Source of the DNA: a virus
Direction: 5' to 3' (one strand)
IMG/VR virus record: IMGVR_UViG_3300021197_001752
Coordinates: 1 to 64,000 of that record
Length of the DNA: 64,000 bases
In this document: positions 1,899-47,035 of the stretch, piece after piece
Numbering within the stretch: the stretch's first letter is position 1
Layout of the letters: the number at the start of each line of letters is the position of its first letter
Translations under genes and position numbers: made by a program
The notes under the pieces: generated by a model
What the model saw: the letters and a program-made list of their open reading frames with translations, nothing else
Told to the model about the DNA's origin: nothing
The model's database searches: none

Positions 1899-2165
1899 CT
1901 AGTTGGTCATTTTCCGTGTCAACGGATTATAGGCTTTCACAGGACCACGGCGACCTTGGGCCCACTTGTCTAAAATTGGCTGGATAAGTATTTCTGTTGA
2001 GAATTTTTTGGGCAGCTTGTCTCTGCCTAATTCGTTAAACATCTGCTTTAGGTGGTTTTGAATAATTATTCTCGCTTGGGCGATCTCAGCACCCGTGACG
2101 CCAGATCGCTCGCTCATAAGCTCTTCTTTAATAATTTCTCGTAGTTCAGATTCGGTGAATTTCAT
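1899..2165 (-). CDS. Small protein with IKEE-type leader (MKFTESELREIIKEELMSE)
   Basis: ORF track; GGAGGA RBS; leader shared with the genes starting at 9907, 10296, 10562 and 11331. Confidence 0.75.
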   Translation of the reverse strand: MKFTESELREIIKEELMSERSGVTGAEIAQARIIIQNHLKQMFNELGRDKLPKKFSTEILIQPILDKWAQGRRGPVKAYNPLTRKMTN

Positions 2166-2174
2166 TTCATCCTC

Positions 2175-3116
2175 CTATAGACCAGAAGCCTTCAACATTA
2201 AGTAGTTTGCTGGATTCATAAACGGTGCTGCCTCTGCTCTGCTCAATAACACAGCTTTGGGCATCTCAGCGATATCTTTATAACCAGAAGTATCCATTAA
2301 GCGTACCTCGACGTCGTAAGTTAAGAGAGACTTAACTATTTTCAAACTTTTATCTTTTGCATCGTCATCCAGTGCCATAAGGACAGGTGTGTCGTTAGAA
2401 ATAATCTTATGGAACAACTTACTATCGTCACGCAAAGTGGACCCTAATAAAGGAATGGCATTCTCGCCATAAGCGATGGCATCAAACACACCCTCTACCA
2501 GTACTACTTCTTTGTTCCAGTCAACCAGCAGATCATTAAAAACTATATCCTTGTTGCCAGGTCCATTTAAATATGGAGGCCAGTCCTTCTTATCCCACGA
2601 TCTAGCTACAAAATAATTACATTCTCCTCTAGCAGAAAAACTAGGTATAATAATCCTGTTAGCATATTGTCCTGTTGGGCAATATCCCAGTCGCCACATG
2701 AGCATATCCTGCTTGGTCACGTTTCTAGATCTAAGATATTTTCGTGCCCTGTTATCTGTTGGTCTTGGTGGTCGAGCCAAAGGTATAAACTCCTCTGGTA
2801 GTTCGATAACCTGCTCTACCTCTTGAACAGATACAAATAGATCCTTCAGATCTGAGTCTATTGGATCTTCTTCAAACTCACGCCATTGATAAACATGATT
2901 AAAGTCGCCATAGCGGCGGACAAGTCGGCGTAGAGATTTACCCTTATAGTCGCAGACCCAACACTTAAAAGCTTCTTTAAGAATGTTTACGGATAGCTTT
3001 GGCTTGTGATGACCACAACAAACACATGGATATAAAAGTTCAGATCCCTGACGGATTGAACCTCCAAGGACCTGATCTAATATTCTCTTTTTCTTTACTG
3101 CTGTTACATCTTTCAA
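2175..3116 (-). CDS. DNA primase (Zn finger + TOPRIM, DnaG/gp61-like)
   Basis: CVCC..CWVC zinc finger; RIIIP; VLVEGVFDA and LDDDA TOPRIM motifs; TTG start. Confidence 0.9.
   Translation of the reverse strand: MKDVTAVKKKRILDQVLGGSIRQGSELLYPCVCCGHHKPKLSVNILKEAFKCWVCDYKGKSLRRLVRRYGDFNHVYQWREFEEDPIDSDLKDLFVSVQEVEQVIELPEEFIPLARPPRPTDNRARKYLRSRNVTKQDMLMWRLGYCPTGQYANRIIIPSFSARGECNYFVARSWDKKDWPPYLNGPGNKDIVFNDLLVDWNKEVVLVEGVFDAIAYGENAIPLLGSTLRDDSKLFHKIISNDTPVLMALDDDAKDKSLKIVKSLLTYDVEVRLMDTSGYKDIAEMPKAVLLSRAEAAPFMNPANYLMLKASGL
2199..2206 (-). promoter_or_regulatory. Putative late promoter motif ACTACTTA
   Basis: Lies inside the primase 3' end, 34 nt upstream of the leader-tagged gene starting at 2165; the motif recurs before other late-type genes. 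Confidence 0.5.
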
Positions 3117-3722
3117 CTACAGTCCAAGTTCTTTTAGTTGCCGAATCGTATTATACACATTATCTGGATCATGTTTAATAGCGACGCCGCCGCCCTCACG
3201 AAACTCGTTGACATATTTATCACGGTCGTCAATCAGAAGTCCTTGCTTTCCGTTCCAAACTCCGTAGGGCTTCTTACTGTCAGACAAGTTGACTTTTTCA
3301 ACTGGAAGCCCTAACTCACGAGCGACCCAAATTCTCTTGCCGACCTTTGAGCCTTCAGCCATCGGAGCAGACAAAATCTCCAACCCTGGGATGTCTTTGA
3401 TATAATCCCAAAGTTCTTTGCCGCCACGCTCCCAGCCGAGGTTAGCCCAGAGGTCAACATCGTTTTCAACCATTCGGTACATGAAATCTCGGACACGATA
3501 GTTCCGAGGCAGGCTACTTTCTTGATCAGACCGAGCAATGTGCCACTTGTTGATCTCGACGTCCCAGCCGCCAAGCTCTTTGGCTGCCGAACGGGCAAGT
3601 TTATAATCAGGATGATCAGGCTCGTGGCGAAGTTCTCGCAACCGCTTATTCATATAACTCAGGACACCATCCTCGAAGTTGACGAGGACACCATCCATAT
3701 CACTAAACACTTGGTATCTCAT
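3117..3722 (-). CDS. HAD-family 5'(3')-deoxyribonucleotidase-like protein
   Basis: FSDMDGVL motif I, ILSAP, GK..W, LIDDR motif IV. Confidence 0.8.
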   Translation of the reverse strand: MRYQVFSDMDGVLVNFEDGVLSYMNKRLRELRHEPDHPDYKLARSAAKELGGWDVEINKWHIARSDQESSLPRNYRVRDFMYRMVENDVDLWANLGWERGGKELWDYIKDIPGLEILSAPMAEGSKVGKRIWVARELGLPVEKVNLSDSKKPYGVWNGKQGLLIDDRDKYVNEFREGGGVAIKHDPDNVYNTIRQLKELGL

Positions 3723-3743
3723 GGGACACCTCCCTCCAACACT

Positions 3744-3771
3744 ATAATAGCATATGCTGGTGGGTTGTCAA
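3744..3771 (-). promoter_or_regulatory. Sigma70-type promoter for nucleotidase-primase
   Basis: TTGACA (3766-3771), 16 bp, then TATTAT (3744-3749) preceded by TG; GGAGGT RBS downstream. Confidence 0.75.
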
Positions 3772-3782
3772 GAGATTATAAT

Positions 3783-4847
3783 TTATTTTCTTCTTCTAAC
3801 CTTAATACGGCGGTTGCCAGAATGCTTACCACCACAATGAGATTCTTCTACATCTTTACGGTTCCCTGGTGGGTTCTCGACAAACATGTCTTTACCACGA
3901 TCGTAGTATTTACCAGCCTTTGGATCGTAATATAATACCTGCCCATCTTCAAACTGGAATGGTCCTTCAAGTCCTGGGAGTGGTCCCATGTCGCCTTTTA
4001 GGTTTGGTACAGTGTGCCTGTCACGAGTGACATATTTGTACAAATCTTTGTTGGACATTTTACTCATTGCTTTTTTCTCTTCATCTGAGCCTCGGTATCC
4101 TTCATCTTTACGGTTACGAGCCGTATAGTCGTTAGACAATTGACCACGCTCAAGTGCATCAAGATATTTCTGATCAGGCTTCTCTACAGAGAGGGGTTCT
4201 TCACCTTTCGCAACAAGTACTGCGTTATACGCTTTCATATATTCTTCGTCGCCCCGACCAATCTTCGATGGGGGGTTGCCCATTTCTGCATCGATTTTGC
4301 CATACTCGGAGAATCTTGCTTCTCCTAAATTATCCTGACGGTTGCCAGCGCCATCTTTATCTTTCATTTGCTTAGCCATGGAAGCAATATCATTAATGGC
4401 TTCCTCTGGAAGACCAGCTAGTTCTCTAGCCTTACCCTCTATATCGATATCTTGCGAATACCTATCTTCATTCATGCCTTCCTTGACCGCTATAAGCTCA
4501 TCAGCAACTATCTCTGTGATATATGGCTCTGGAACTGGGACAAAATCAGATATAGTTCCTTGCTGGTCATGACTAGATTTATAGGTCTGCTCTGCTTCAT
4601 GGGTTACTTTAACTTGGGCTCGGTCGGAAACGACCCGAGTATAGCCTTTCTCGCCCTTAAGCATCATTAGAATACCTTTGTAGTATTTGCGGGTGTTAGT
4701 TCTGTAATCGGCTACTTGGAATTGTACAATGTCGCCCTTCTTGAGAGACTGGGCCATCCTGACATTTCCTGAACCTCCGTGGCGACCTAGATCTCCACCA
4801 TAAGCTTCTTTATCTTCTTTGATTATTCGTACTCTAAACTTTTTCAT
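3783..4847 (-). CDS. Multi-module putative internal head protein
   Basis: ATG at 4847 after GAGGTG. Starts MKKFRVRIIKE; short modules are separated by xxE sites; contains GLEGPF..LYYDPKAGKYYD, a motif I recognise from large-phage proteins. Confidence 0.65.
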   Translation of the reverse strand: MKKFRVRIIKEDKEAYGGDLGRHGGSGNVRMAQSLKKGDIVQFQVADYRTNTRKYYKGILMMLKGEKGYTRVVSDRAQVKVTHEAEQTYKSSHDQQGTISDFVPVPEPYITEIVADELIAVKEGMNEDRYSQDIDIEGKARELAGLPEEAINDIASMAKQMKDKDGAGNRQDNLGEARFSEYGKIDAEMGNPPSKIGRGDEEYMKAYNAVLVAKGEEPLSVEKPDQKYLDALERGQLSNDYTARNRKDEGYRGSDEEKKAMSKMSNKDLYKYVTRDRHTVPNLKGDMGPLPGLEGPFQFEDGQVLYYDPKAGKYYDRGKDMFVENPPGNRKDVEESHCGGKHSGNRRIKVRRRK

Positions 4848-4863
4848 GTTAAACACCTCACAG

Positions 4864-4871
4864 TAAATAGT
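4864..4871 (-). promoter_or_regulatory. Putative late promoter motif ACTATTTA
   Basis: Intergenic, 17 nt upstream of ATG 4847. Confidence 0.55.
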
Positions 4872-4886
4872 CTATAAATTTTTATG

Positions 4887-5591
4887 TTACATAAATGCAC
4901 TAGGCAAAATATCAATATTATAATATTTGCCCAATTTTACAAGAGCGCCAATTGCAATTGCACCGCCAGGGGGTATAAAGAGTGCTAACAAAATTGCGCC
5001 CACTCCAATGTCTCGTAGTTGTCTTTTTAGGAATGACTTTTCTTCCTCGGATAACGCTGTGCCTTTGGCTGCTTTTAATATAAGTTTACCCGCTTCGCCA
5101 GATTCTTTTATTTCCTGCCCGACTTTTGCCAAGCTAGATTTAATAGATTTGATTGCTGATGTAGATTTATCTTTCAGCCAATCTCTCAGCCCCTCATCAA
5201 GAAGCTCCTCGTTGAGGTCAGCCATCTTTTCTTCTTTGATGGCTGCTCGTCCAACTGTAACAACACTTGTTCTACCTCTCTTGTCGGTTACTTCTACCTT
5301 ATAAGACTCACCATCAAATGATAGGACTTTGCCTTTGTTGGCGGGAAATAATCCACGAGGAAGTTTTACTATTTTTCCTACTAGACTTTTATCTTCGGTA
5401 AGATGCTGGGCTGGGCGTCCTTGCTTTATCCAGTCTTCAATAACAAATATTTTTTGGTCTTCCGACAAATTCCAGAAAACCTCCTGCGAATCTTCGCTGA
5501 GGCGGGAGGCATACTGCTTATAAATCTTCTCGTTTACTTTGTGGACTTTTCTAAAATCCCTCCAGTTCTCCATTATAAGCTTATGACTCAT
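4887..5591 (-). CDS. W-type leader protein with C-terminal hydrophobic LETM1-like segment
   Basis: Leader KLIMENWRDF; C-terminus IGVGAILLALFIPPGGAIAIGALVK..ILPSAF. Confidence 0.6.
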   Translation of the reverse strand: MSHKLIMENWRDFRKVHKVNEKIYKQYASRLSEDSQEVFWNLSEDQKIFVIEDWIKQGRPAQHLTEDKSLVGKIVKLPRGLFPANKGKVLSFDGESYKVEVTDKRGRTSVVTVGRAAIKEEKMADLNEELLDEGLRDWLKDKSTSAIKSIKSSLAKVGQEIKESGEAGKLILKAAKGTALSEEEKSFLKRQLRDIGVGAILLALFIPPGGAIAIGALVKLGKYYNIDILPSAFM

Positions 5592-5829
5592 CTTTGTTCC
5601 CAGCTTCTAAAGTCTTTTTACTTTTCTTGCTATCTGGTAGGCTCTTTTCAATTCTAAATTTGAGCAGAGATTGACCGTTGATTGTTGGCTGCCCTAATGC
5701 ATCTTTTCCAATACTTTTTACGATCACTCGCTTGTTTTTGAATTTACCACCCAAGAGCACATCGCCAACTTTAATGTCAAGCTTGATCTCGCTTAAATAC
5801 TTCCGCCACTCTGTTAGTAGTTTTTTCAT
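5581..5829 (-). CDS. W-type leader + small beta-rich (KOW/SH3-like) domain
   Basis: MKKLLTEWRKYLSE followed by IKVGDVLLGGKFKNKRVIVK. Confidence 0.7.
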   Translation of the reverse strand: MKKLLTEWRKYLSEIKLDIKVGDVLLGGKFKNKRVIVKSIGKDALGQPTINGQSLLKFRIEKSLPDSKKSKKTLEAGNKDES

Positions 5830-6243
5830 TTATTTATCTGTTTCCGCAGCTTTGGTAATGTTCATAACAAATCCTGTTTTGCCGAAGAGTTTTTCATATT
5901 CATTCTTGTCATTTTTCCCGAAGGCTCCTACTTCACCTTCCTCTCCCGTTCGTGGGGATCTGACTTCGTAGGTCTTTCTCTCGCCAGAGCCGTCAACGAC
6001 CACCAACTTGGTTGGCTGACCTTTGGCTATCCCTTTGTCTGTTAGTGCTCCGATAACACGATAAACAGGCTTGCGGTTGCCGATAGTAAAAGTATCGCCT
6101 CTGTCTAAGCCCTCCAGATCATCAAGATGAGGTGAGCGTTGGATCTCAGGTCCTCGCTCATCATCAGAAAACCCGCCGAACTCAGCCGCCCAGTCGTTTT
6201 CTTCCTTCATAAACTTACGCCACTCTGTTAGTAGTTTTTTCAT
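5830..6243 (-). CDS. W-type leader hypothetical protein
   Basis: Starts MKKLLTEWRKFMKEE. Confidence 0.75.
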   Translation of the reverse strand: MKKLLTEWRKFMKEENDWAAEFGGFSDDERGPEIQRSPHLDDLEGLDRGDTFTIGNRKPVYRVIGALTDKGIAKGQPTKLVVVDGSGERKTYEVRSPRTGEEGEVGAFGKNDKNEYEKLFGKTGFVMNITKAAETDK

Positions 6244-6911
6244 ATTACAAATAACCTTTTGGCTTTTTGTAGTGCTTCGATAGTTTCAGTAGAGCCTTTA
6301 GAATAAATTTTAGACAGCGGGCTTTTAGGCCAGTCAGTACTTCTCCTGCCAATTGGCACAGTCTGATCGCAATCGTCTTCTTTTTTATCTGGAGTTAGTT
6401 GTGGGAAATAATCAAGTGTTTTTGAGGAGATTGAGTCTAGACCATGAGCAACGTCCATTTGGCTTGGTTTTACATCTGAGCGTTTCTCATATTTGTCCCA
6501 TACGGCTAGGGCGTAATCAGATACAGAAAATCTGTCTGGCATAAGACCGCCGCCGTTTTGTGAAGCCCATTCTAGAATCACCTCATATAATAATGGTCCC
6601 CAGCCTCTTTCCGCTCTCGCACCTACAACAACATGTCCATTAAAGCATGGTCCATTTTCATCTTCTATCGCCCTGTCAACCTGCAAACCGCCATAGGGTA
6701 TGCCTGTCTTGCTTTGTTTTAACTCTGAAAACTGCTTATTCTCATAATCCTCAATGCGAACATATCTTACCTGGGCACCATCGCCGCCGCCCTCGACGTC
6801 AAGCACAATACCAATATCGTCAAGTGCTAGCAGAGCGTTCAACTGCTTCTGGATGCGAGGATCAAGACCCTCCTTCAAAAACTCTCTCCACTCTGTTAGT
6901 AGTTTTTTCAT
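6240..6911 (-). CDS. W-type leader + GNAT-like acetyltransferase (paralogue of 7829-8452)
   Basis: MKKLLTEWREFLKE; RGWGPLLY..GLMPDR.SVS..A..VW. Confidence 0.65.
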   Translation of the reverse strand: MKKLLTEWREFLKEGLDPRIQKQLNALLALDDIGIVLDVEGGGDGAQVRYVRIEDYENKQFSELKQSKTGIPYGGLQVDRAIEDENGPCFNGHVVVGARAERGWGPLLYEVILEWASQNGGGLMPDRFSVSDYALAVWDKYEKRSDVKPSQMDVAHGLDSISSKTLDYFPQLTPDKKEDDCDQTVPIGRRSTDWPKSPLSKIYSKGSTETIEALQKAKRLFVI

Positions 6912-6912
6912 T

Positions 6913-7302
6913 TTATTCTTCTTTACCCTTTACAACACCAAGAGGACCAGCTTTAGCCTTTGGTCCTATTAGCTTTTGATCTCCAGATATCTGATCACCA
7001 TTTATAAGAAGGTTGATGGTGTTTATACCCATTAGTGGTTGGTGTACTATTATGTAGACACCCTCTGGATGGTCTGCTATAAACTCTCCCACCCTTGGTT
7101 CTTTATAATTTCTGTCTCTGTCCATAATATATTTTTGTATCAGAGCAGGACTGCCCTCAGCCTCATATCCTAGAGCATTAAGATCATCCATTAATCCATA
7201 AAAATCTCTACCGTTTTTGTTTAGTGCGTTAACCATTTCTTCTTCGTCAAACTCTTGTGACTCATTTAGAAATTGTCGCCATTCGTTTAATAGTTTTTTC
7301 AT
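6913..7302 (-). CDS. W-type leader hypothetical protein
   Basis: Starts MKKLLNEWRQFLNE. Confidence 0.75.
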   Translation of the reverse strand: MKKLLNEWRQFLNESQEFDEEEMVNALNKNGRDFYGLMDDLNALGYEAEGSPALIQKYIMDRDRNYKEPRVGEFIADHPEGVYIIVHQPLMGINTINLLINGDQISGDQKLIGPKAKAGPLGVVKGKEE

Positions 7303-7832
7303 AATCCTAAATCCTCATATGGTATTCCAAGCTCGTCAGCTTTAGCTCTTGCCTTGATCTTCCAAGCCTCTTTGGTTGAAGGAATATCACCGACGCCTTT
7401 TATATTTAGTTTGCTAACATCAAAGACGACTATTTCGTGACCCGAGTGGGCACCATCAAAGCCTTTCTCTGTAAAGTATTTTGTTAATGCTGCTGATCTT
7501 TCAGGGTCATTTGCTTTTGGCGGGAAGCTTACACCCGCTTGTTTCAAGTCGCTTATGTGATCATTGAAGTTGGCTACGTTCTCTAGGCTGTGTTCTACTT
7601 CTAGGACAACTGGGTCTCCACCAAATCTCTTGGCATTTTCTTCTGCATAGCTCATGGCCATGTCACTATCGATCGATAAGTAAATACCCCTACCTAAGTT
7701 ACCACTATCTCTCCTGCCTGCCTTACTGTCATCAAATTTATCAAACACCTCAGTGGTGCCATGATATAAAGTATCTGGTAGGAACTTTGATTCCTTCAGA
7801 TACTTCCGCCACTCTGTTAGCAGTTGTTTCAT
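7299..7832 (-). CDS. W-type leader + ADP-ribosyltransferase (ART-PolyVal-like, H-Y-E type)
   Basis: LYHGT..FDKFD..GRGIYLS..A.SYA..HEIVVFD. Confidence 0.8.
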   Translation of the reverse strand: MKQLLTEWRKYLKESKFLPDTLYHGTTEVFDKFDDSKAGRRDSGNLGRGIYLSIDSDMAMSYAEENAKRFGGDPVVLEVEHSLENVANFNDHISDLKQAGVSFPPKANDPERSAALTKYFTEKGFDGAHSGHEIVVFDVSKLNIKGVGDIPSTKEAWKIKARAKADELGIPYEDLGL

Positions 7833-8452
7833 TCTTCTAATTTACCTGCCGCACGCAAAGCGTCTAATGTTGGAGTTGAGCCCTTGCTGTATAAATAAGC
7901 TGTGGGTTGGGATGACCAGCCGTACTCCTTATCAAGGTTATTCTTTCTTGCCCACCTAATTGAAGATGATTGCTCGCAGTCATCAGATTCATCGTCAGGG
8001 GTAACCTTCTCAAAATCACGATTGGTAATGTCTAGTTGTTTAGCCTCTACATCTTTTCGTTTCCGCATATAATAATCCCATACTTGATAGGCATCTCTAG
8101 AAACGCTGCCTCGGTCAGCAGTAAGCCCGCCGCCAAGTTCGCTAGTCAGTTCTAGCATTATGTCATATAAAAGTGGACCCCAGCCTTTTCTGGCAGATGC
8201 CTGTACGACCTGATAGCCGTCTAGACAAGGCTTCGATAGTTTTACTGAAGTCATGGACCCCCAAGGGGCATCGTCAGGTGGAGGAGGATCACCAGCGTTT
8301 GCATGGTAGAGTGTTTGACCCTCGTGCTTATAAGCCAATTGAATATCTTGTCCAATGCTAACAAGTATGCTTGATCCTTCAGGGAGATCTTTTATAGTCT
8401 TCATCCCTTCGGACAATAAATACTTTCGCCACTCTGTTAGTATTTCTTTCAT
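7829..8452 (-). CDS. W-type leader + GNAT-like acetyltransferase
   Basis: Start reassigned to 8452 (MKEILTEWRKYLLSE; ATGA overlap with the upstream stop); RKGWGPLLY..GLTADR.SVS..A..VW. Confidence 0.65.
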   Translation of the reverse strand: MKEILTEWRKYLLSEGMKTIKDLPEGSSILVSIGQDIQLAYKHEGQTLYHANAGDPPPPDDAPWGSMTSVKLSKPCLDGYQVVQASARKGWGPLLYDIMLELTSELGGGLTADRGSVSRDAYQVWDYYMRKRKDVEAKQLDITNRDFEKVTPDDESDDCEQSSSIRWARKNNLDKEYGWSSQPTAYLYSKGSTPTLDALRAAGKLEE

Positions 8453-8982
8453 AGTCCTATAAATATCACATCGCCTGATGATGTGTAATCCCTTGCAAGT
8501 GATTTCCACACTCTCCTGGCATCAGCCGAAGTTCCTGAGCCTATGGTGCAGTGATGTGCCCCTACAAATACACCGCCATAAGACTTGGCGTATTCTGCTG
8601 CTTGAGCGATAAATGCTTTGTATATTTCTTTGCCGTACCCTTTGCCTCGTTGTTCTGGGTTAGTGATCCAGGCATTTTCTATATCGTAAAATCTTGGTCT
8701 GAACTTAGCTGGCACTTCTTTCATTATATAATTGCCGTCTTCGTCCTGTGCCATATCTTTGGTGGTATTGTTGGCTTCAAACTTTTCTTTAGCTTTTATA
8801 AATTCTGGTGTTTCCATAAGAGCGTCAACATCTGACTGACATTCTTTAAATCTTAGGTGTTGCATCCCTTGGGCATAACCAATACCTTGAAGGTCAATAC
8901 GAAAGTATTCCGAGTCACCCTTGAGCTTGAACTTTGAGCCCTCATTTATAAACTGTCGCCACTGTTCCATAAGAAGCTTCAT
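8449..8982 (-). CDS. W-type leader + GNAT acetyltransferase
   Basis: MKLLMEQWRQFINE; acetyl-CoA loop PEQRGKGYG; S.DA.RVW.SL. Confidence 0.75.
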   Translation of the reverse strand: MKLLMEQWRQFINEGSKFKLKGDSEYFRIDLQGIGYAQGMQHLRFKECQSDVDALMETPEFIKAKEKFEANNTTKDMAQDEDGNYIMKEVPAKFRPRFYDIENAWITNPEQRGKGYGKEIYKAFIAQAAEYAKSYGGVFVGAHHCTIGSGTSADARRVWKSLARDYTSSGDVIFIGL

Positions 8983-8983
8983 A

Positions 8984-9151
8984 TTACTTTAGCTCCACTC
9001 TTTTTGATGCAAAATCTACCAATATAAATGGAAATATTGCATGAATAAGTAAGCCACCCGCACATAACATTAGCTTGGCAGAATACTTGCCAGCATGTAG
9101 TAGGTGCTGGAGGTATGTCATGTCTTGTTCTTTCAGGTGCTTTGCTAACAT
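8984..9151 (-). CDS. 55-aa DUF6356-like small hydrophobic protein
   Basis: Translated by hand (below the ORF track cutoff): MLAKHLKEQDMTYLQHLLHA..LLIHAIFPFILVDFAS; fills the gap between its neighbours exactly. Confidence 0.7.
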   Translation of the reverse strand: MLAKHLKEQDMTYLQHLLHAGKYSAKLMLCAGGLLIHAIFPFILVDFASKRVELK

Positions 9152-9152
9152 A

Positions 9153-9593
9153 TCATTCCTCTGGGAATTTATTTCTGTTCTGCCAGTCGTGGGACACCTT
9201 ATCCTGATCTATTGGACCGCCCTTAGCCCATGTGCGGCACGAGCGGGCTGAGTGACACTTAAAATGATGCATCCAGCAGTAGCCCAGTTCGCCATCATCA
9301 TCTGATGTTTCCCCTGGCATACAGTCTTTCATTCTTGGTGAGATGTCAAATGCAACACAATTGCCGCAGTTAGATTTTTTAGCTGCCTCTTCAGTTGTGT
9401 TCCAATACTCGGCAATATCTTTCCAGTAATCACCTGGCTCATCTACATTGAGCGGTCCATACTGAATGTGTTCTGCTTTGATGGAAGCATCCCGATTTTT
9501 AGTATTAAGTTCTAAGTCTTGCGTTGCGGGAGGACAAATATACTCCTTGGCAGTATCAACAAACTTTCTCCATTTTACGATTATCTTTTTCAT
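9153..9593 (-). CDS. Degenerate W-type leader + Cys-rich metal/Fe-S-binding domain
   Basis: Start reassigned to 9593 (MKKIIVKWRKFV; TAATG overlap); CGNCVAF..GYC..C....C..W. Confidence 0.65.
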   Translation of the reverse strand: MKKIIVKWRKFVDTAKEYICPPATQDLELNTKNRDASIKAEHIQYGPLNVDEPGDYWKDIAEYWNTTEEAAKKSNCGNCVAFDISPRMKDCMPGETSDDDGELGYCWMHHFKCHSARSCRTWAKGGPIDQDKVSHDWQNRNKFPEE

Positions 9594-9907
9594 TACCAGT
9601 CCTTGCAGGCCCAATATCTTGCTTTAAGTTTAGAACCTGGGCTTTTACAATTCATGCGGACCCTAAAGTTCTTTCTGTTTTTTGGCTTGTCTTTGTTATT
9701 TCTCATCTTAGCATCACCGAATTTAACTATTCTTTCTTTACCATCTTCGCAAGCCTTGACAACTTTTTGTTTCTTGCCGTGACCAGTCTCGCCTTTTCTA
9801 ATATATCGCTTTTTGTTGCATTTCATTTTATCTTTATCAAATTCAGCAATCACTGAGGCGATTTCTTCTTTTATAATATTTCGTATTTCGTCTTGAGATA
9901 AATTCAT
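9593..9907 (-). CDS. IKEE-type leader + basic phage domain (DUF6321-like)
   Basis: MNLSQDEIRNIIKEEI..IAE; IVKFGD..RKNFR.R.NC..ARYWACK.W. Confidence 0.7.
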   Translation of the reverse strand: MNLSQDEIRNIIKEEIASVIAEFDKDKMKCNKKRYIRKGETGHGKKQKVVKACEDGKERIVKFGDAKMRNNKDKPKNRKNFRVRMNCKSPGSKLKARYWACKDW

Positions 9908-10296
9908 CCTTTTTTCCCTGCCTTTGATTTTTTACCGTAGTTACCTCGTTTGCTACATGCCCCTGGTGTGGGTCTGCACTTTGGATACTTGGAACGCTTT
10001 TCGTCGCTGCCACGACCGCAAGCTTTACATTTCTTTCTGCCTGTCTTTTTGTCTTTACGGCAGGTGTTACAATCTACCCAGCCGCTCTTACTTCCTTTTT
10101 CGCCCTTGCGTCCAAACCAATCACCAAGATTCGATTCTGATCCTGGCTTGCTGGTGAGTTTACGTTTCTTACGCTTTACTTTTCTTTTCTTGCGTTTCTT
10201 CTTTTTTTTCTCGTCAAGATTCTCAGACTGTTCCGCTAGCAGTTGCTGTAACTGCTCCTGAATCATCTGTTTTAAATCAGAACGAGATAACTTCAT
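9904..10296 (-). CDS. IKEE-type leader + polybasic Cys-containing protein
   Basis: MKLSRSDLKQMIQEQL; LDE followed by a long K/R run; DWF..GWVDC..CGR..YPKCRP. Confidence 0.7.
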   Translation of the reverse strand: MKLSRSDLKQMIQEQLQQLLAEQSENLDEKKKKKRKKRKVKRKKRKLTSKPGSESNLGDWFGRKGEKGSKSGWVDCNTCRKDKKTGRKKCKACGRGSDEKRSKYPKCRPTPGACSKRGNYGKKSKAGKKG

Positions 10297-10562
10297 TTAT
10301 CTTTACCGCCTTCGCCCCAGTTTTTAGCACCAACTTTGCGGCACTTAACAAGTGCACCTGATGCATAAGCTGATGGCCAAACTTTATACCTTGACTTGAC
10401 CTTGTGATAACAAGCATCTCGCTTCGCCTTACGCTTAACACGTCTCTTTTTCTTTTTTGTTTTGCGGCGGCTAGAAGCTTTTCTCTTAGCTTTACGCTTT
10501 TTCTTTTCGTCTAAGATCGCTTCTCGAATAAGTTCTCTGAGGCTGTCATGTGTAAACTTCAT
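10293..10562 (-). CDS. IKEE-type leader + polybasic protein
   Basis: MKFTHDSLRELIREAILDE, K/R run, then DACYHKVKSRYKVWPSAYASGALVKCRK, a motif I recognise from T4-like marine phages. Confidence 0.75.
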   Translation of the reverse strand: MKFTHDSLRELIREAILDEKKKRKAKRKASSRRKTKKKKRRVKRKAKRDACYHKVKSRYKVWPSAYASGALVKCRKVGAKNWGEGGKDK

Positions 10563-10577
10563 ATTCCTGACTCCTCA

Positions 10578-11033
10578 TTATTGTCTTGGGTTTACAACGT
10601 AGGTTCTCTGCTGACCTCCTCCAAAACTATCTGTTTTGAAGTCGTCTTTTCTCATCACTGTGATGACCTTTAGTGTATCAGGACCTTTTTGCATGTTAAG
10701 TACACCGATCACATTAAGATCAGGAACCGATTTGGCTTTGCTGACCCCTTTTATGTGAAACGCCTCATCGTTAGCTAATTCACCGTTTGCGTAATCATTT
10801 ATAATTTTACCTAATGCCATCTCTACTGTTCCGACGATCGCCTCATTAGAAATCTTCTTATCATGGCGAAATTGTCTTTCCTTGCTATGTTTGGTAGCCT
10901 GTAAATCCAGATCATCCAGATCTATAACAATTTTCAAACCACCGACTTTAGCAACATAAGCGCCGCCGCTGCCCAGGTCAGACATTTTTTCTTCGTTGAT
11001 AAAATTCTTCCAAACTGCAAATACGTTATGCAT
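10578..11033 (-). CDS. W-type leader hypothetical protein, possible RelE/BrnT-like RNase fold
   Basis: Leader WKNFINEE; TKHSKERQ.R...KVITVM. Confidence 0.5.
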   Translation of the reverse strand: MHNVFAVWKNFINEEKMSDLGSGGAYVAKVGGLKIVIDLDDLDLQATKHSKERQFRHDKKISNEAIVGTVEMALGKIINDYANGELANDEAFHIKGVSKAKSVPDLNVIGVLNMQKGPDTLKVITVMRKDDFKTDSFGGGQQRTYVVNPRQ

Positions 11034-11331
11034 TGGTGGTAACAGCCGCTCTAAGTTTCGTAGGCTCTAGATCTAGCCCGATCATATTCAGCAAAGTATC
11101 TGCAACCATTGCTTGTCTGGCAACGTTTTGTTTTTGCATGTATGCTTTAAGCTTCTCTAGAACTTTCACATCGCCGCCGTCGCCCATTATTTGCTTAAGG
11201 GCAACCTTAACCTGATTAGGTACATCAGCATCCGCTCCAGGCGCTGCCTCAGCTTCTGGCTCTTCTTGGATGTTGGTGGTGTTGATCTCTTCTTTGATCA
11301 AATCTCTGATCATGTCTTTTGTGAGCTTCAT
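11026..11331 (-). CDS. IKEE-type leader hypothetical protein
   Basis: Start reassigned to 11331 (AAGGAG RBS); MKLTKDMIRDLIKEEI..IQEE. Confidence 0.7.
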   Translation of the reverse strand: MKLTKDMIRDLIKEEINTTNIQEEPEAEAAPGADADVPNQVKVALKQIMGDGGDVKVLEKLKAYMQKQNVARQAMVADTLLNMIGLDLEPTKLRAAVTTNA

Positions 11332-11377: not shown

Positions 11378-11956
11378 CTACTCTGTCAAAACTATCTTAT
11401 CTGTCAGGAAACCTTTATTGTCCTTGTTCTTCAATAAAAACTCACCAGCCCTAGCAATTACAACTGCGTCTGCTCGATCGTCTGTTCCACGTTTATAGTT
11501 TTTTCCGCCTCTAGCCATTTCATAAGGAAATGATGTCTTTTCTCTTTCTATGACCGCTTGAATGACCATCTTCTTTCTTTGTGGTCCTTTTGTGCCACGA
11601 GGGAAAGATAGCCCATATAAAGATCGAGCCGTGTTGACATTAATAAATGTTGGCTCAAGTTCCAATTCACTAAAGCATAACCAAGACACAACACCATTGA
11701 ACTTAGCCAGTTTAATAATAGTATCTGCTCTTGATCTACCAGGGACAAACCTCTTCAGTGCTGTCTCAATAAAGACATGTTCAAATTTATATTCTCCTCT
11801 CAGAGCATAAAGCTCTGACCCAACCATCTCATATTTGGTGTAGCTGTTATCTATCTTAGACAGGTCCCAGCCCTTGCAGTGCACTAAGTCACCAGTAGTC
11901 GAATCTATGACGGCAACGCCTATCATAGTGGATGAAATATCTAATCCTAGTATCAT
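11378..11956 (-). CDS. RuvC-like Holliday junction resolvase
   Basis: ILGLDISS..G; VFIE; D.ADAVVIA acidic catalytic set. Confidence 0.85.
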   Translation of the reverse strand: MILGLDISSTMIGVAVIDSTTGDLVHCKGWDLSKIDNSYTKYEMVGSELYALRGEYKFEHVFIETALKRFVPGRSRADTIIKLAKFNGVVSWLCFSELELEPTFINVNTARSLYGLSFPRGTKGPQRKKMVIQAVIEREKTSFPYEMARGGKNYKRGTDDRADAVVIARAGEFLLKNKDNKGFLTDKIVLTE

Positions 11957-13087: not shown

Positions 13088-14224
13088 TTAGTAGTCTAGC
13101 CTGACCCTCAACGTTAGCTCATTAGCAGGTGTCTTTTTGATAGGTTCACTGAGCTTTGCTACCGCCAGCAATTCGTTATTAGCACCATACATGCCAACTG
13201 TTGTAATGTACGAAACTGGTGTGTCTGTGGCAGTGCTCTTGACACGTAGTTGACTAGCACTTAGGTACGTTGGATTTGAGCTATAGTTAAACTCATTGGC
13301 GTTAGCACGGCAGAAGTAGACTGAGGAGTTTAGTTCTGTCGTATTGTTGAAGGAGATGTTATCTATTCTGTGATTGATAACTTTAGCAATGTTATTGAGA
13401 CTTGCTGTTACCAGCAGAGCCGTTGACCCTGTAATCGCTCCTGTAGCGAGCAGATGTGTATTGGTTGGTACAATACTGTTCTGTTTGAGAGGTGATGTAC
13501 CTGTTCCTGTGCTACCCGAATCGAATAAGGAAGCGGTGAGGACAGCTATGCCAGCCTGATAATATACTAGACCAACTGAGTTAGAAGTAGCTGTAAACGA
13601 ACCTTCGTTCTGATATAGAATTCCATATTCGCCTGCGGGCGAATTGACAAAGTAGTTAGTTCCTGCATTGAGGTCTCTAAGGTTTACCTTTTTAGCACGA
13701 GCTTTACCAGTACCTGCGTCATTGCCGCCGTCGGGCTGCGAACCTACCAGTAGGTTGCCGCTGACAAACATATCCATTTGGAATGTGCCTTTTTTGATTT
13801 CATCTTTTGTGAGTAGGCGTGAAAAGTTGACAAAGAAAACTTCTTTAAGCTTGGTGCCGCCAGTTAAGTTTCCATCCTCATCGAATTCACGAATAGCGCC
13901 AGAAGCATCATGTCCTACAAGAACTTGTGCCATCTGGTTGTAAAGATTTATTTTTTGAGTACTGAGATTTCCGCCAACTATATGTGTGCCACTAAGAGCG
14001 GAGTTGGATGAATAGCCAGCCGTCACATCAAAGATATGGTTTGCTGATGAACTGAGATAGGGATAATCATATACTGCGGTAAACATAGCGTGTGTATGTG
14101 TTTGTATGTTTTCGTTATTGTATGTTCCCGAGACGATCGTTCCTGTAATTGGAATATTTTCGTGTAACTTAGTTCTTGTGTCTACAACGTCGCTTGGTAG
14201 AAGTGTTTTAAATGTAGTCGCCAT
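13088..14224 (-). CDS. Virion structural protein, paralogue of 11982-13076
   Basis: G.V.Y..G...LTAS core and YITTVGMY..NELLAVAKLSEPIKK..RVRLDY. Confidence 0.6.
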   Translation of the reverse strand: MATTFKTLLPSDVVDTRTKLHENIPITGTIVSGTYNNENIQTHTHAMFTAVYDYPYLSSSANHIFDVTAGYSSNSALSGTHIVGGNLSTQKINLYNQMAQVLVGHDASGAIREFDEDGNLTGGTKLKEVFFVNFSRLLTKDEIKKGTFQMDMFVSGNLLVGSQPDGGNDAGTGKARAKKVNLRDLNAGTNYFVNSPAGEYGILYQNEGSFTATSNSVGLVYYQAGIAVLTASLFDSGSTGTGTSPLKQNSIVPTNTHLLATGAITGSTALLVTASLNNIAKVINHRIDNISFNNTTELNSSVYFCRANANEFNYSSNPTYLSASQLRVKSTATDTPVSYITTVGMYGANNELLAVAKLSEPIKKTPANELTLRVRLDY

Positions 14225-14237
14225 AACTTATCCCTTA

Positions 14238-15209
14238 TTATACCTTAATAAATCTAACAGGTATATCCACACGATACCCTGTAGTAAACCCTGTGACTCT
14301 TATTGTACTATCAATAAATTTGAATGCTTGGCTAGGAGTGGTAAGAGTCATAGTAGAACCACCTAGTGTGTTGAACAAATAATCGCTCGACGCAAGATTG
14401 TCAGTTGCACGGATCTTGAAGTTGAACCTCAGTCCAGCACGTCCAGCGATTGGGGAGTTGAGGTTAGCGGTTTGAGCATTGTTTTGCCCAATTGAATCAA
14501 AGTAAGAACTATCATTTAGGCTACCCTGTAAGGAGAAATAATAACTAGCAATTTGATCATCATCTACAAATGATACTCTTGCGTCTTCAGCATCTGTATC
14601 GGGCGTAACGATTGTTCCAAGCCTGTTATCAATTTCTATCACATAGGCGGTCTCTGTTAGAGTGTTGGAAACACCCAACGGGATCAAACCTAATGCATTG
14701 TTGTCAATACCTTGGTCAAAGGTAATTACAGGCTGATTAGCTAGATCTGCTCTAGCTCCTCTGATAAGCCCTTTGGATGTATTGTCACCAGCAAATATTG
14801 CTGTTGTTGCATCATTGACTGTTATGACATATGATCCAGCCGTTGTTTTGTCCGCAAGGGTTGCCTCAGAAGGATCTGTAGTGGGCCCAGCACCTACATC
14901 ACCGAAGGTGTTCAACTGTACTACTGGGAGGTACAGAAGATCGGTTCGGGCGATGGTCAAAAGCTTTGACTTCATAACACTTGTGTTGTTAGTGAAAGCT
15001 TCAAATACTGGTGATTGAAGAATATTCAAATCATAGTATGCTGAACCACTTGCATGGTTGTAATTGTAAAGTTCGTAGTTGATTTCATCATCACCGAAAG
15101 CGAACTTGGTAATTCTAAAACTACCGTCGCCTTTTGCTAATCTTTTTCTACCAGTGTCGGTAAGTACGGCATCTAATATAATATCGCCGCTATTGTCAAG
15201 AAATGCCAT
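14238..15209 (-). CDS. Virion structural protein
   Basis: DAVLTDTGRKRLA....ITKFAFGDDEINY; located in the tail module. Confidence 0.6.
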   Translation of the reverse strand: MAFLDNSGDIILDAVLTDTGRKRLAKGDGSFRITKFAFGDDEINYELYNYNHASGSAYYDLNILQSPVFEAFTNNTSVMKSKLLTIARTDLLYLPVVQLNTFGDVGAGPTTDPSEATLADKTTAGSYVITVNDATTAIFAGDNTSKGLIRGARADLANQPVITFDQGIDNNALGLIPLGVSNTLTETAYVIEIDNRLGTIVTPDTDAEDARVSFVDDDQIASYYFSLQGSLNDSSYFDSIGQNNAQTANLNSPIAGRAGLRFNFKIRATDNLASSDYLFNTLGGSTMTLTTPSQAFKFIDSTIRVTGFTTGYRVDIPVRFIKV

Positions 15210-46321: not shown

Positions 46322-47035
46322 TTATACCTCGCCTTCAAGCCATCTTTTTCTAAAGTCAGCATATTTTTGTCGTAGTCTCTTTAGGCTGCTTACTATCTGC
46401 TTTGTATTCAGCCCAGTGATCTCACGCATGTATAAGTAAATAGCTTTTTTATTAAAAATCTCGATCTGTTCGATGTTATTCATTAGGGTTTGTATAGCAT
46501 CTAATACTTTTCTTTCGTTTTCTCGAAGATCTTCGTCGCCCCATTTACTCACCTCTGTTAGCAAAAAAGCCCAAAACTGATGATCTTCTAAGCTGTCTTC
46601 TATGGTGCCCTTAGCATTATTGTTGACTATATCAATTTCTTTTATTACTGAACCGAATTCAATCTCTCGCTTATTTCTCTTAGTTTGCTTTTTAGCTTTA
46701 TGGGTGAACCAATTTTTTGTGACAACTGAAAAATAAGAAAAAGCCTTAGTCCCACGGTCTGGATTGTATTTATCCAAAATTGTCGTGAGCCATATTTTGC
46801 AATCTTCTTTATGATTGTCCACATTTTGTAAAGAAGTAAACTTATATGTGTAAACTATCTTGTCTACCAACTCATTAAAGGCTGGTTGTATATGCTCAAT
46901 ATATAAACTGGTTCTCAGTTTGAGGTCGTCGGTTCTAGCATATTCCACAATTGCCATTTCAGTATCTTTTGTAAAGTAATGGTTTTTTTTGCTTTTATTT
47001 CTCTTACCTCTGGTCTTAGTATTAGTCTTCTGCAT
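46322..47035 (-). CDS. Phage RNA polymerase sigma factor (gp55-like late sigma)
   Basis: YFT..E.AI.Y; LDKYNPDRGTKAFSYFSVVTKN region-2 motif; C-terminal HTH-like segment. Confidence 0.75.
   Translation of the reverse strand: MQKTNTKTRGKRNKSKKNHYFTKDTEMAIVEYARTDDLKLRTSLYIEHIQPAFNELVDKIVYTYKFTSLQNVDNHKEDCKIWLTTILDKYNPDRGTKAFSYFSVVTKNWFTHKAKKQTKRNKREIEFGSVIKEIDIVNNNAKGTIEDSLEDHQFWAFLLTEVSKWGDEDLRENERKVLDAIQTLMNNIEQIEIFNKKAIYLYMREITGLNTKQIVSSLKRLRQKYADFRKRWLEGEV

Follow-up and report, generated by a model that had tools for sequence, protein, structure and literature searches.

In bacteriophage T4, a 10-residue capsid targeting sequence (CTS) suffices for targeting, and gp21 cleaves after L/I-x-E (PMC9026906). 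[quoted passage not shown] In the phiKZ-like giants (phiKZ, 201phi2-1 and SPN3US), a diverged gp21 homolog processes many head-internal proteins C-terminal to Glu, and a large protein load enters with the DNA (PMC9026906, PMC5694885). In contrast to the locus described here, where a uniform portable tag precedes unrelated bodies, these phages have an S/A-x-E motif, long propeptides and paralogous cargo families. The cargo-loading peptides of encapsulins are short, portable, C-terminal and uncleaved, and they bind the shell protein directly, with no DNA delivery. They resemble our system by analogy only, in that a portable short peptide sends unrelated enzymes into an HK97-fold shell; the leaders here, however, are N-terminal and putatively cleaved. 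Iyer, Burroughs, Anand, de Souza and Aravind reportedly described in 2017 the polyvalent proteins found in phages and in conjugative elements, which are presumed to enter the host together with the invading DNA. Their effectors are similar to those found here (ART-PolyVal, zeta-toxin-like kinase, papain-like peptidases and ParB_N), but they are parts of giant multidomain chains, whereas nearly every effector here is a separate small tagged gene. A giant single polypeptide of the polyvalent type was rejected for this locus, since each leader-headed cargo gene is an ORF of its own (57-354 aa), with only one two-module in-frame chain.

The window analysed here comprises 64,000 nucleotides, positions 1 to 64,000 of the 146.7-kb IMG/VR record IMGVR_UViG_3300021197_001752. 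At 1899-11331, two conserved leader classes of 14-16 residues head 15 minus-strand genes, or 16 with one doubtful gene (3783-4847), which agrees with the about 16 counted in an earlier note on this DNA, all of whose coordinates hold. The W-class consensus is Met-Lys-Lys-Leu-Leu-Thr-Glu-Trp-Arg-Lys-Phe/Tyr-Leu-x-Glu and terminates in Leu-x-Glu; the E-class consensus is Met-Lys-Ile/Leu-Thr-Lys-x-x-Leu-Arg/Lys-x-Ile-Ile-Lys-Glu-Glu and terminates in Ile-Lys-Glu-Glu. The leaders of both classes end in the gp21 cleavage motif (Leu-x-Glu in the W class and Ile-Lys-Glu in the E class; motif according to PMC9026906). We regard the W and E leaders, with a probability of about 0.7, as putative sequences for targeting to the capsid (prohead core), specific to the lineage of this distant T4-type myovirus, and the system would best be read as an expanded two-class version of the T4 CTS.

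Like the CTS of T4 IPI, IPII, IPIII and Alt, the leaders have a Met-Lys start, an aromatic residue in the middle, a Leu/Ile-x-Glu end and unrelated bodies behind them. A gp21-family protease is present in the lineage, and the cargo includes an ADP-ribosyltransferase and very basic small proteins, which makes the T4 analogy of the earlier note an apt one. However, the leaders are 14-16 rather than 10 residues long, their sequences are unlike those of T4, and the leader HMMs did not match the T4 regions examined. Compared with the handful of tagged genes in T4, there are two leader classes and ~25 tagged genes per genome in long coupled arrays, and an internal leader occurs in one in-frame two-cassette chain. 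This phage also differs from T4 in its DnaE-type replicase, in having no detectable gp55 or gp45, and in its putative late motif; it encodes its own GroEL-like chaperonin.

Tagged genes and their products

Leaders were scored with HMMs trained on IMG/VR copies, for which noise is at or below about 5 bits. The 15 array leaders score 10-32 bits, except that of 10578-11033 (5.3 bits), and all matches within the array lie at ORF starts on the coding strand. The features of the array and its flanks are as follows.

1899-2165, minus strand: E-class leader gene; 88 aa, basic body; E HMM 24.9 bits
2175-3116, minus strand: primase without leader; phrog_47, E 1e-36; no match to the leader HMMs
3117-3722, minus strand: 5'-nucleotidase-like gene without leader; phrog_2643, E 7e-12; no match to the leader HMMs
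3783-4847, minus strand: doubtful degenerate leader gene; 354 aa; N-terminus ends Ile-Ile-Lys-Glu-Asp; no leader-HMM match
4863-4870, minus strand: putative late-promoter motif ACTATTTA, exact; 14 nt upstream of the longest ORF start of 3783-4847
4887-5591, minus strand: degenerate W-class leader gene; 234 aa; W HMM 10.2 bits
5581-5829, minus strand: W-class leader gene; 82 aa, basic small domain; W HMM 31.8 bits
5830-6243, minus strand: W-class leader gene; 137 aa; W HMM 25.9 bits
6240-6911, minus strand: W-class leader gene; 223 aa; W HMM 27.5 bits
6913-7302, minus strand: W-class leader gene; 129 aa, acidic; W HMM 29.1 bits
7299-7832, minus strand: W-class leader gene, ADP-ribosyltransferase (ART-PolyVal); 177 aa; W HMM 31.1 bits
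7829-8452, minus strand: W-class leader gene; 207 aa; W HMM 23.6 bits
8449-8982, minus strand: W-class leader gene; 177 aa; W HMM 27.9 bits
8984-9151, minus strand: DUF6356 gene within the array, without leader; 55 aa; PF19883, E 3.5e-11; no leader-HMM match
9153-9593, minus strand: degenerate W-class leader gene; 146 aa, 7 Cys; W HMM 11.7 bits
9593-9907, minus strand: E-class leader gene; 104 aa, net charge +18; E HMM 14.2 bits; phrog_7595
9904-10296, minus strand: E-class leader gene; 130 aa, net charge +31, 6 Cys; E HMM 19.7 bits
10293-10562, minus strand: E-class leader gene; 89 aa, net charge +27; E HMM 15.3 bits; phrog_727, E 2e-21
10578-11033, minus strand: degenerate W-class leader gene; 151 aa; W HMM 5.3 bits
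11026-11331, minus strand: E-class leader gene, first in the array; 101 aa; E HMM 15.0 bits
11368-11375, minus strand: ACTACTTA, a one-mismatch variant of the putative late motif; ~37 nt before the first array gene
11378-11956, minus strand: RuvC-like resolvase bordering the array, without leader; phrog_159

Three of the degenerate leaders have better-scoring counterparts in the twin genome G003: 24.1 bits for that of 4887-5591, 30.9 bits for the ortholog of 9153-9593, which keeps the full leader, and 10.0 bits with the W HMM for the ortholog of 10578-11033. Ordinary replication enzymes bearing the leader, which the earlier note held to be incompatible with packaging, were not found; both the primase and the RuvC-like gene lack it.

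The product of 7299-7832 matches PF18760 (E 6.6e-8) and exceeds the curated cut-off. The product of 6240-6911 is probably a GNAT-fold acyltransferase, as predicted from its AF2 model, for which the best structural matches are nearly all GNAT (Z 4.4-5.9). In this model, residues 1-14, the W-class leader, form a detached helix (pLDDT ~35), and the body is confident. Alignment and BLAST identify 7829-8452 as a paralog of 6240-6911. Residues 15-62 of the 5581-5829 body match an internal domain of a protein of Pelagibacter phage HTVC008M and also a 60-aa huge-phage ORF whose N-terminus differs. Relatives of 9153-9593 found by tblastn carry the annotation high-potential iron-sulfur protein, and the product of 1899-2165 has no Pfam or PHROG match.

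Leader conservation and spread

Similarity among the proteins ends at the leader Glu, as the earlier note had observed: the information content falls from >3.5 bits to ~0.7 bits within two residues past it. The final Glu of the W class is kept in 89 of 98 copies. As also anticipated, the HMM scan found leaders essentially at N-termini only, plus internal copies in one fused protein (308 aa; one clear copy at 16.4 bits and one weak at 5.5 bits). By our own arithmetic, the degenerate DNA patterns of the leaders amount to about 46 and 50 bits. They nevertheless have matches in 35 and at least 119 viral stretches, which excludes recurrence by chance. A Sec/Tat signal peptide was rejected, since the leaders are charged and amphipathic and have no hydrophobic run (~10 or more residues would be expected after the basic N-region).

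The whole record contains about 25 leader genes (11 W and 14 E), with a second cluster at 114-122 kb of the genome. In IMG/VR, at least 375 distinct leader-headed proteins were found on 152 stretches, and their bodies fall into 261 clusters, most of them without a known family. Members of two body clusters carry either leader class, and one body (5581-5829) has homologs elsewhere without a leader. The leader arrays lie in variable regions and their content differs among relatives; in the relative G002, the RuvC-like gene abuts the primase, which indicates that the array occupies a variable insertion site. Given this location and the swapping of leaders between bodies, the tag would act as a portable address for recruiting new cargo.

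Prohead protease and head module

No S77/gp21-type protease was found in the 146.7-kb record itself, which is ~81% complete and is missing the whole head module. The twin G003, which is collinear over 173 of 182 genes with a median identity of 90%, has a 28-kb head module absent from the studied record that encodes a gp21-type (S77) prohead protease (14021-14446), a portal, a scaffold and a gp23-type major capsid protein (MCP). G002 also encodes such a protease. For the studied phage, whose own record is without the enzyme, the protease argument rests on G003 and the relatives. The gp21-like protease that the earlier note predicted is thus present in the lineage, namely in G003 and in all 10 leader-bearing contigs of at least 70% estimated completeness. 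It was detected in 5 of 5 and in 21 of 39 leader contigs, with fragments positive roughly in proportion to their completeness; a gp21 homolog occurs in only about 5% of cultured phage records. The catalytic His and Ser of the protease are invariant.

Leaders are also found close to this enzyme. Across 20 head modules, 28 of 38 leader matches are no more than 2 kb away from the protease start, where T4 has genes 67/68. The protease N-terminus is itself W-like and keeps Leu-Leu-x-Glu, and a conserved head-core protein encoded just after the protease has an E-like N-terminus, so that the leaders appear to have a modest likeness to both (8-12 bits with the E HMM for the core protein, or qualitative only). 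The scaffold and the MCP propeptide are rich in the Leu/Ile-x-Glu sites that were expected in capsid and scaffold proteins, although the motif is short and common.

Putative mechanism and alternative explanations

In the mechanism we propose, the leader genes would be expressed late, along with the head genes, and the amphipathic leader would confer affinity for the assembling scaffold core, because the leaders resemble the N-termini of genuine core components (the protease for W and the post-protease small protein for E). The shell would then close around the core, and the gp21-type protease would cleave after Glu to free the mature protein within the head. The basic small proteins would remain with the DNA. 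By analogy with T4 Alt and the IPs, the enzymes (ADP-ribosyltransferase, GNAT-like, zeta-type kinase and others) would probably be ejected with the DNA into the next host.

The expression timing was considered from the promoter motifs. In G000, G002 and G003, ACTATTTA stands before structural and leader genes, on the coding strand and mostly between genes; G002 has 18 copies on the coding strand versus 0 on the other. The claim of a promoter shared with the structural genes therefore holds exactly for several leader genes and only approximately for the head of the main array, which has the one-mismatch variant. This pattern is consistent with late synthesis of the array genes. Homologs of gp55, gp45 and gp44 were searched for in this phage and none was found; T4-style late control therefore cannot be assumed. 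The main array could also be transcribed earlier, from a sigma-70-like site that lies upstream of the RuvC-like gene.

If the tags work in this manner, N-termini alone would flag hundreds of uncharacterised proteins as virion-packaged and possibly injected, and would lead directly to new effectors of host takeover and anti-defence in marine T4-type phages that are abundant but uncultured. The T4 capsid-targeting principle would be ancient, sequence-diversifying and expandable to ~25 genes per genome, new short tags would become available to load foreign proteins into phage heads, and the proposal from T4 work that the N-terminus of the protease itself serves as a core-targeting peptide would gain support.

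It is possible, but rather unlikely, that the tagged proteins are head-targeted and cleaved yet are mostly accessory core, scaffold or DNA-condensing proteins, which are degraded and expelled or retained with the DNA like T4 gp67, gp68 and peptides II/VII, and are not delivered effectors. With a median length of 110 aa, the E-class bodies are short, and they are acidic with low complexity past the leader or extremely basic; E-class genes adjoin the protease in the gp67/68 position, and most cargo bodies have no enzyme signature. The larger W-class bodies (median 177 aa), however, include an ART, GNAT-like enzymes, C39/C70-like proteases, a SAM lyase and a zeta-type kinase, which make poor sense as scaffold, and T4 ejects Alt and the IPs (PMC9026906). 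The capsid-packaging and injection reading of the earlier note is partly supported: its computational predictions were borne out, but many E-class proteins are small, with an acidic or basic character, and may belong to the core or the head interior instead of acting as effectors. Still more speculatively, the two classes may provide two-channel addressing, in which W mimics the protease and E the post-protease core protein, sorting cargo by place, copy number or fate (DNA-bound basic and acidic internal proteins versus ejected enzymes). With such addressing, this uncultured lineage of marine phages would have at its disposal hundreds of injected effectors for host takeover and anti-defence, exchangeable like plug-ins.

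It is improbable that the leader is an amphipathic helix acting outside the capsid pathway, for instance in oligomerisation, in membrane association or as a pro-peptide silencing toxic enzymes in the producing cell. The leader is predicted to be helical and amphipathic, and a pro-form would benefit toxic cargo such as the ART and the zeta-type kinase, but a signal-peptide-type hydrophobic stretch is absent, and the link to the gp21-type protease, the clustering beside it and the Leu/Ile-x-Glu ending would all be left unexplained. A pro-peptide role would fit alongside capsid targeting and would not replace it.

We consider it very improbable that the leader was left by recombination or duplication as a scar, in the form of a conserved 5' cassette boundary for gene shuffling with no peptide function. 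Three adjacent W genes share ~24 identical nucleotides at their 5' ends, and the arrays lie in regions that vary between relatives; however, conservation is at the peptide rather than the DNA level. All synonymous codons are used family-wide for the conserved residues (six each for Arg and Leu), the DNA upstream of leader genes is unrelated, and conservation tracks the reading frame and stops at a protease-type site. Local DNA identity may aid shuffling, yet it leaves the peptide constraint unexplained. Equally hard to credit is that the leader, instead of serving the capsid, is recognised by an enzyme of modification or maturation (RiPP-like, e.g. a radical-SAM maturase), by a chaperone or by a degradation machine: one leader on unrelated bodies is a typical RiPP trait and the GroEL-like chaperonin is phage-encoded, but radical-SAM (PF04055) occurs in one of five leader-rich genomes and in none of G000, G002 and G003, no conserved maturase lies beside the arrays, and of the two enzyme families tested only the prohead protease co-occurs with leaders.

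Two classes of leader in the window and the record

Fifteen minus-strand genes within 1899-11331 of the window are headed by one of two N-terminal leader types, the W class and the E class, which precede otherwise unrelated cargo bodies. The earlier note had proposed a common leader on about 16 genes, of which only the sixteenth is doubtful.

1899-11331, minus strand: seven clear and three degenerate copies of the W-class leader, consensus Met-Lys-Lys-Leu-Leu-Thr-Glu-Trp-Arg-Lys-Phe/Tyr-Leu-x-Glu
1899-11331, minus strand: five copies of the E-class leader, consensus Met-Lys-Ile/Leu-Thr-Lys-x-x-Leu-Arg/Lys-x-Ile-Ile-Lys-Glu-Glu
3783-4847, minus strand: the doubtful sixteenth leader gene, 354 aa
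Genome 119411-120337 (L003:15411-16337, L003 being a stretch of the whole record), minus strand: a 308-aa two-cassette protein with a clear (16.4 bits) and a weak (5.5 bits) internal leader copy

The window makes up the first 64 kb of the whole record (G000; linear, 146,705 bp, ~81% complete by CheckV), which has nearly all of its genes on the minus strand and contains a second leader cluster at 114-122 kb, with one W and nine E genes. HMMs trained on distinct leaders from other contigs (73 W and 227 E) score the G000 copies at ~10-32 bits, except for 10578-11033 (5.3 bits), with noise at or below ~5 bits. All matches in G000 lie on the coding strand and at ORF starts, as the earlier note had expected of such a scan, save for the internal copies in the 308-aa protein. 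The leader is absent from the primase, nucleotidase, DUF6356 and RuvC-like genes in or adjoining 1899-11331. In G003, a collinear twin of G000, the two cassettes of the 308-aa protein are separate genes, residues 93-308 corresponding to one of 216 aa that has a leader itself; together with the clear internal leader, this identifies the protein as an in-frame fusion of two cassettes. The internal leader would provide an internal protease site, making the product a small cargo polyprotein.

The similarity ends at the Glu, as had been claimed: information content stays above 3.5 bits through the Glu that closes Leu-x-Glu (W) or Ile-Lys-Glu-Glu (E), and no more than two residues later it is down to ~0.7 bits; some leader positions are fixed by the search patterns, yet the free positions are conserved as well, and the drop after the Glu is independent of sampling. 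Three adjacent leader genes do have ~24 identical 5´ nucleotides in common, which may aid cassette exchange. However, a DNA repeat or a cassette scar leaves the constraint on the peptide unexplained and, as the principal explanation, is rejected. Family-wide, the invariant Arg is specified by six codons drawn from both codon families, and every conserved Leu by six. The DNA ahead of each leader simply closes the preceding gene, often with coupled stop and start codons, and is not conserved. These patterns indicate that selection acts on the leader peptide and not on the DNA. A recognition tag for a radical-SAM-type maturase is also rejected, as radical SAM proteins occur in one of five leader-rich genomes and in none of G000, G003 and G002, a more distant syntenic relative. 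A signal peptide is excluded by the leader composition.

Association with the prohead protease and the head

The window carries gp6-like and gp25-like baseplate genes, and G000 has no capsid genes in its 146.7 kb. G002 (147 kb) is syntenic with G000 at 25-74% identity. G003 (174.6 kb, 95% complete) has 173 of 182 genes in common with G000, in collinear order and with a median amino-acid identity of 90%, and its extra 28 kb maps exactly between the two ends of G000.

G003, 28-kb head module: TerL, portal, gp21-type protease, scaffold-like protein, gp23-type major capsid protein (MCP) and sheath

The G002 MCP is nearest to those of the distant T4-like phages Microcystis Mel-JY01, Flavobacterium immuto and Rhodothermus RM378, and the G002 protease is 36% identical to T-even gp21; the protease family keeps the catalytic His and Ser. 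The protease gene of G003 occupies 13928-14524 of that genome. PF03420, PF04586 and a custom protease HMM find no match in the ~81% complete G000, which is attributed to the missing head module. Two further genes of the record are a 3704-aa ORF in the tail-fibre/baseplate block (window 22444-33558, minus strand; 90% identity in G003, partly conserved in G002) and a GroEL-like chaperonin of 527 aa (genome 109423-111006, L003:5423-7006, minus strand), read from its N-terminal sequence alone.

The earlier note had predicted a gp21-like protease in addition to N-terminal leaders. Peptidase_S77 is encoded by all 5 leader-bearing contigs of a first scan and by 21 of 39 in a later one; all 10 contigs that are at least 70% complete have it, with fragments positive roughly in proportion to completeness; among cultured phage records the comparison rate for a gp21 homolog is ~5% (2,625 of 50,697). 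The prediction holds for the 10 more complete contigs and for the twin G003, the incomplete G000 itself giving no match. We cut 20 head modules around the protease irrespective of leader position. Leader matches occur in 18 of them, all on the protease strand, and 28 of the 38 matches lie within 2 kb of the protease start (~9 expected if evenly spread). They peak in the 1 kb directly upstream of the protease, the position of core genes 67 and 68 in T4, and about ten of the 38 belong to one conserved post-protease protein (123-150 aa), to whose N-terminus the E HMM gives 8-12 bits. The protease N-termini themselves are W-like (Met-(x)-Lys-Lys-Leu-Leu-Arg/Thr-Glu-Tyr/Phe...), with the Leu and Glu nearly invariant. 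The LxE sites predicted for the scaffold and capsid proteins are likewise found: Leu/Ile-x-Glu averages 1.15 per 100 aa over the proteome but reaches 3.8 in the G003 scaffold, and residues 1-60 of the G003 MCP contain four such sites, including Leu-Lys-Glu-Ala ~19 residues ahead of the conserved core.

In T4, gp21 cleaves after L/I-x-E, IPIII residues 1-10 suffice for head targeting, and proteins fused to the capsid targeting sequence (CTS) are packaged and then delivered (PMC9026906). T-even internal proteins form a diverse set with the CTS alone in common (PMC3012670). In the T4 record, IPII and IPIII have a common 10-residue leader ending in Ile-Ala-Glu, the IPI leader is related but longer, and the short leader at the start of Alt is rich in Leu/Ile-x-Glu. 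The runs Leu-Leu-x-x-Trp-Lys-x-Leu-Leu-Glu and Ile-Asp-Leu-Ile-Lys-Glu-Glu occur in the gp23 propeptide and in gp67, respectively. T4 workers suspected that a Leu-Ile-Glu site near the gp21 N-terminus acts like a CTS (PMC9026906); it parallels the W-like protease N-termini of the leader phages. The leader HMMs detect neither T4 nor immuto proteins, so the likeness to the T4 CTS is one of design and character and not of alignable homology. We consider it fairly probable (roughly 70%) that the leaders are a lineage-specific form of the T4 CTS, expanded and with two classes, that is served by a gp21-type protease. While the CTS principle is already known from T4, the scale, the two leader classes, the leader likeness to core-protein N-termini and the phage lineage appear to be undescribed; a full-text literature search with leader strings returned nothing relevant.

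In immuto, a 76-aa ORF directly after the protease (L173:10340-10567) carries Trp-x-x-Lys-Phe-Leu-Lys-Glu near its N-terminus, a stretch that resembles the W leader although it is sub-threshold in the HMM. This ORF could serve as a cultured-phage test case for the leader idea.

Cargo and distribution

The cargo with recognizable features is as follows.

7299-7832, minus strand: ART-PolyVal ADP-ribosyltransferase (Pfam)
6240-6911 and 7829-8452, minus strand: paralogous, probable GNAT-fold enzymes (top structural matches nearly all GNAT, Z 4.4-5.9)
9153-9593, minus strand: Cys-rich cargo (7 Cys), with relatives in other phages annotated as high-potential iron-sulfur protein
Genome 118488-119405 (L003:14488-15405), minus strand: AAA_33/zeta-toxin-type P-loop kinase, 305 aa, with a degenerate E leader (9.8 bits)

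The AF2 model of the 223-aa cargo at 6240-6911 has a confident body, from which the leader is detached as a low-confidence helix. Foldseek alone gives no significant match for it; this protein and its paralog are probably GNAT-fold enzymes, on moderate evidence. The kinase is a candidate packaged toxin-like enzyme. The leader at 9153-9593 is degenerate in G000 and intact in the G003 ortholog. Three proteins at 9593-10562 with net charges of +18 to +31 recall the basic internal proteins of T4, and many E-class bodies are short and acidic. PHROGs and Pfam give no match for most cargo, nor for the small proteins of the head module. In a diverse set of 148 cargo representatives, Pfam identifies ART-PolyVal (3), GNAT families, C39/C70-like peptidases, Ntn hydrolase, SAM lyase, ParB_N and 2H phosphoesterase; most have no match. 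Injection of the enzymatic cargo is plausible, at slightly below even odds. Within the capsid model, the main uncertainty is the share of delivered effectors versus core or DNA-associated proteins.

The leaders are real and widespread. Back-translated leader patterns retrieved 35 W and at least 119 E stretches from IMG/VR, from which 152 loci (1.29 Mb) were taken. Among the matches listed, these loci contain 413 leader-bearing ORFs. By body, the 375 distinct complete proteins from this set group into 261 clusters, of which 214 have a single member and two include both W-headed and E-headed members. The body of the 82-aa W protein also occurs within a protein of 170 aa from Pelagibacter phage HTVC008M, a phage with no strict E-leader match, and behind a different N-terminus in a huge-phage ORF. 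Cultured phages gave no match to the window by megablast or to two E-class proteins by tblastn, so these searches revealed no cultured carrier with virion proteomics. Cellular genomes (596 Gb) yielded only 14 stretches with the E pattern. Every one of these belongs to a metagenome bin, the taxonomic labels of the bins being scattered, and several lie on large multi-copy contigs; a gp21-type protease is present in two of five bins tested, so the stretches look like mis-binned phage contigs. NHDW01000006.1 (305 kb; L209, L214, L216) and PBIO01000025.1 (101 kb; L210, L213), from bins labelled Methylococcaceae and Halobacteriovorax MAGs that contain the protease, have 7-8 E-leader genes each and are probably such contigs.

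Array site and expression

In G002 the primase directly adjoins the RuvC-like gene (57.8-59.3 kb; window equivalents 2175-3116 and 11378-11956), and the leader arrays lie elsewhere (125.8-132, 134.6-136 and 141.5-146.6 kb), which marks the array site of the window as a variable insertion region.

The motif ACTATTTA is found 25-45 nt ahead of start codons and almost exclusively on the coding strand (coding vs other strand: 18 vs 0 in G002, 13 vs 2 in G003, 9 vs 1 in G000). Genes with the motif in front include those for sheath, tube and scaffold, the gp25-like and core genes, and leader genes or arrays. The earlier claim that the array head has the promoter of the structural genes is only roughly right: in the window the exact motif lies ahead of 3783-4856 and the first array gene has a one-base variant. 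The T4 late promoter TATAAATA shows no enrichment, and homologs of T4 gp55, gp45 and gp44 are not detectable in G000, G002 or G003. Scans for sigma-70 promoters and terminators over 1-16 kb do not exceed shuffled expectation; late timing is made somewhat less certain by a sigma-70-like site that lies upstream of the RuvC-like gene. Late expression of the leader arrays is plausible from the motif pattern. Directly upstream of the tail/baseplate block lies a 237-aa gene (window 46322-47035, minus strand) whose G002 ortholog has a sub-threshold match to Sigma70_r2 (E 0.017); its product is a candidate small phage sigma factor acting at the putative late motif ACTATTTA.

Strong sigma-70-type early promoters cluster outside the arrays, at 81-108 kb of the genome (L001, L002, L003). 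At least five are near-identical, with TTGACA, a 17-nt spacer and TATAAT, behind which comes a conserved ribosome-binding box rich in purines. They mark an early region and point to a host of the classical sigma-70 and Shine-Dalgarno type.
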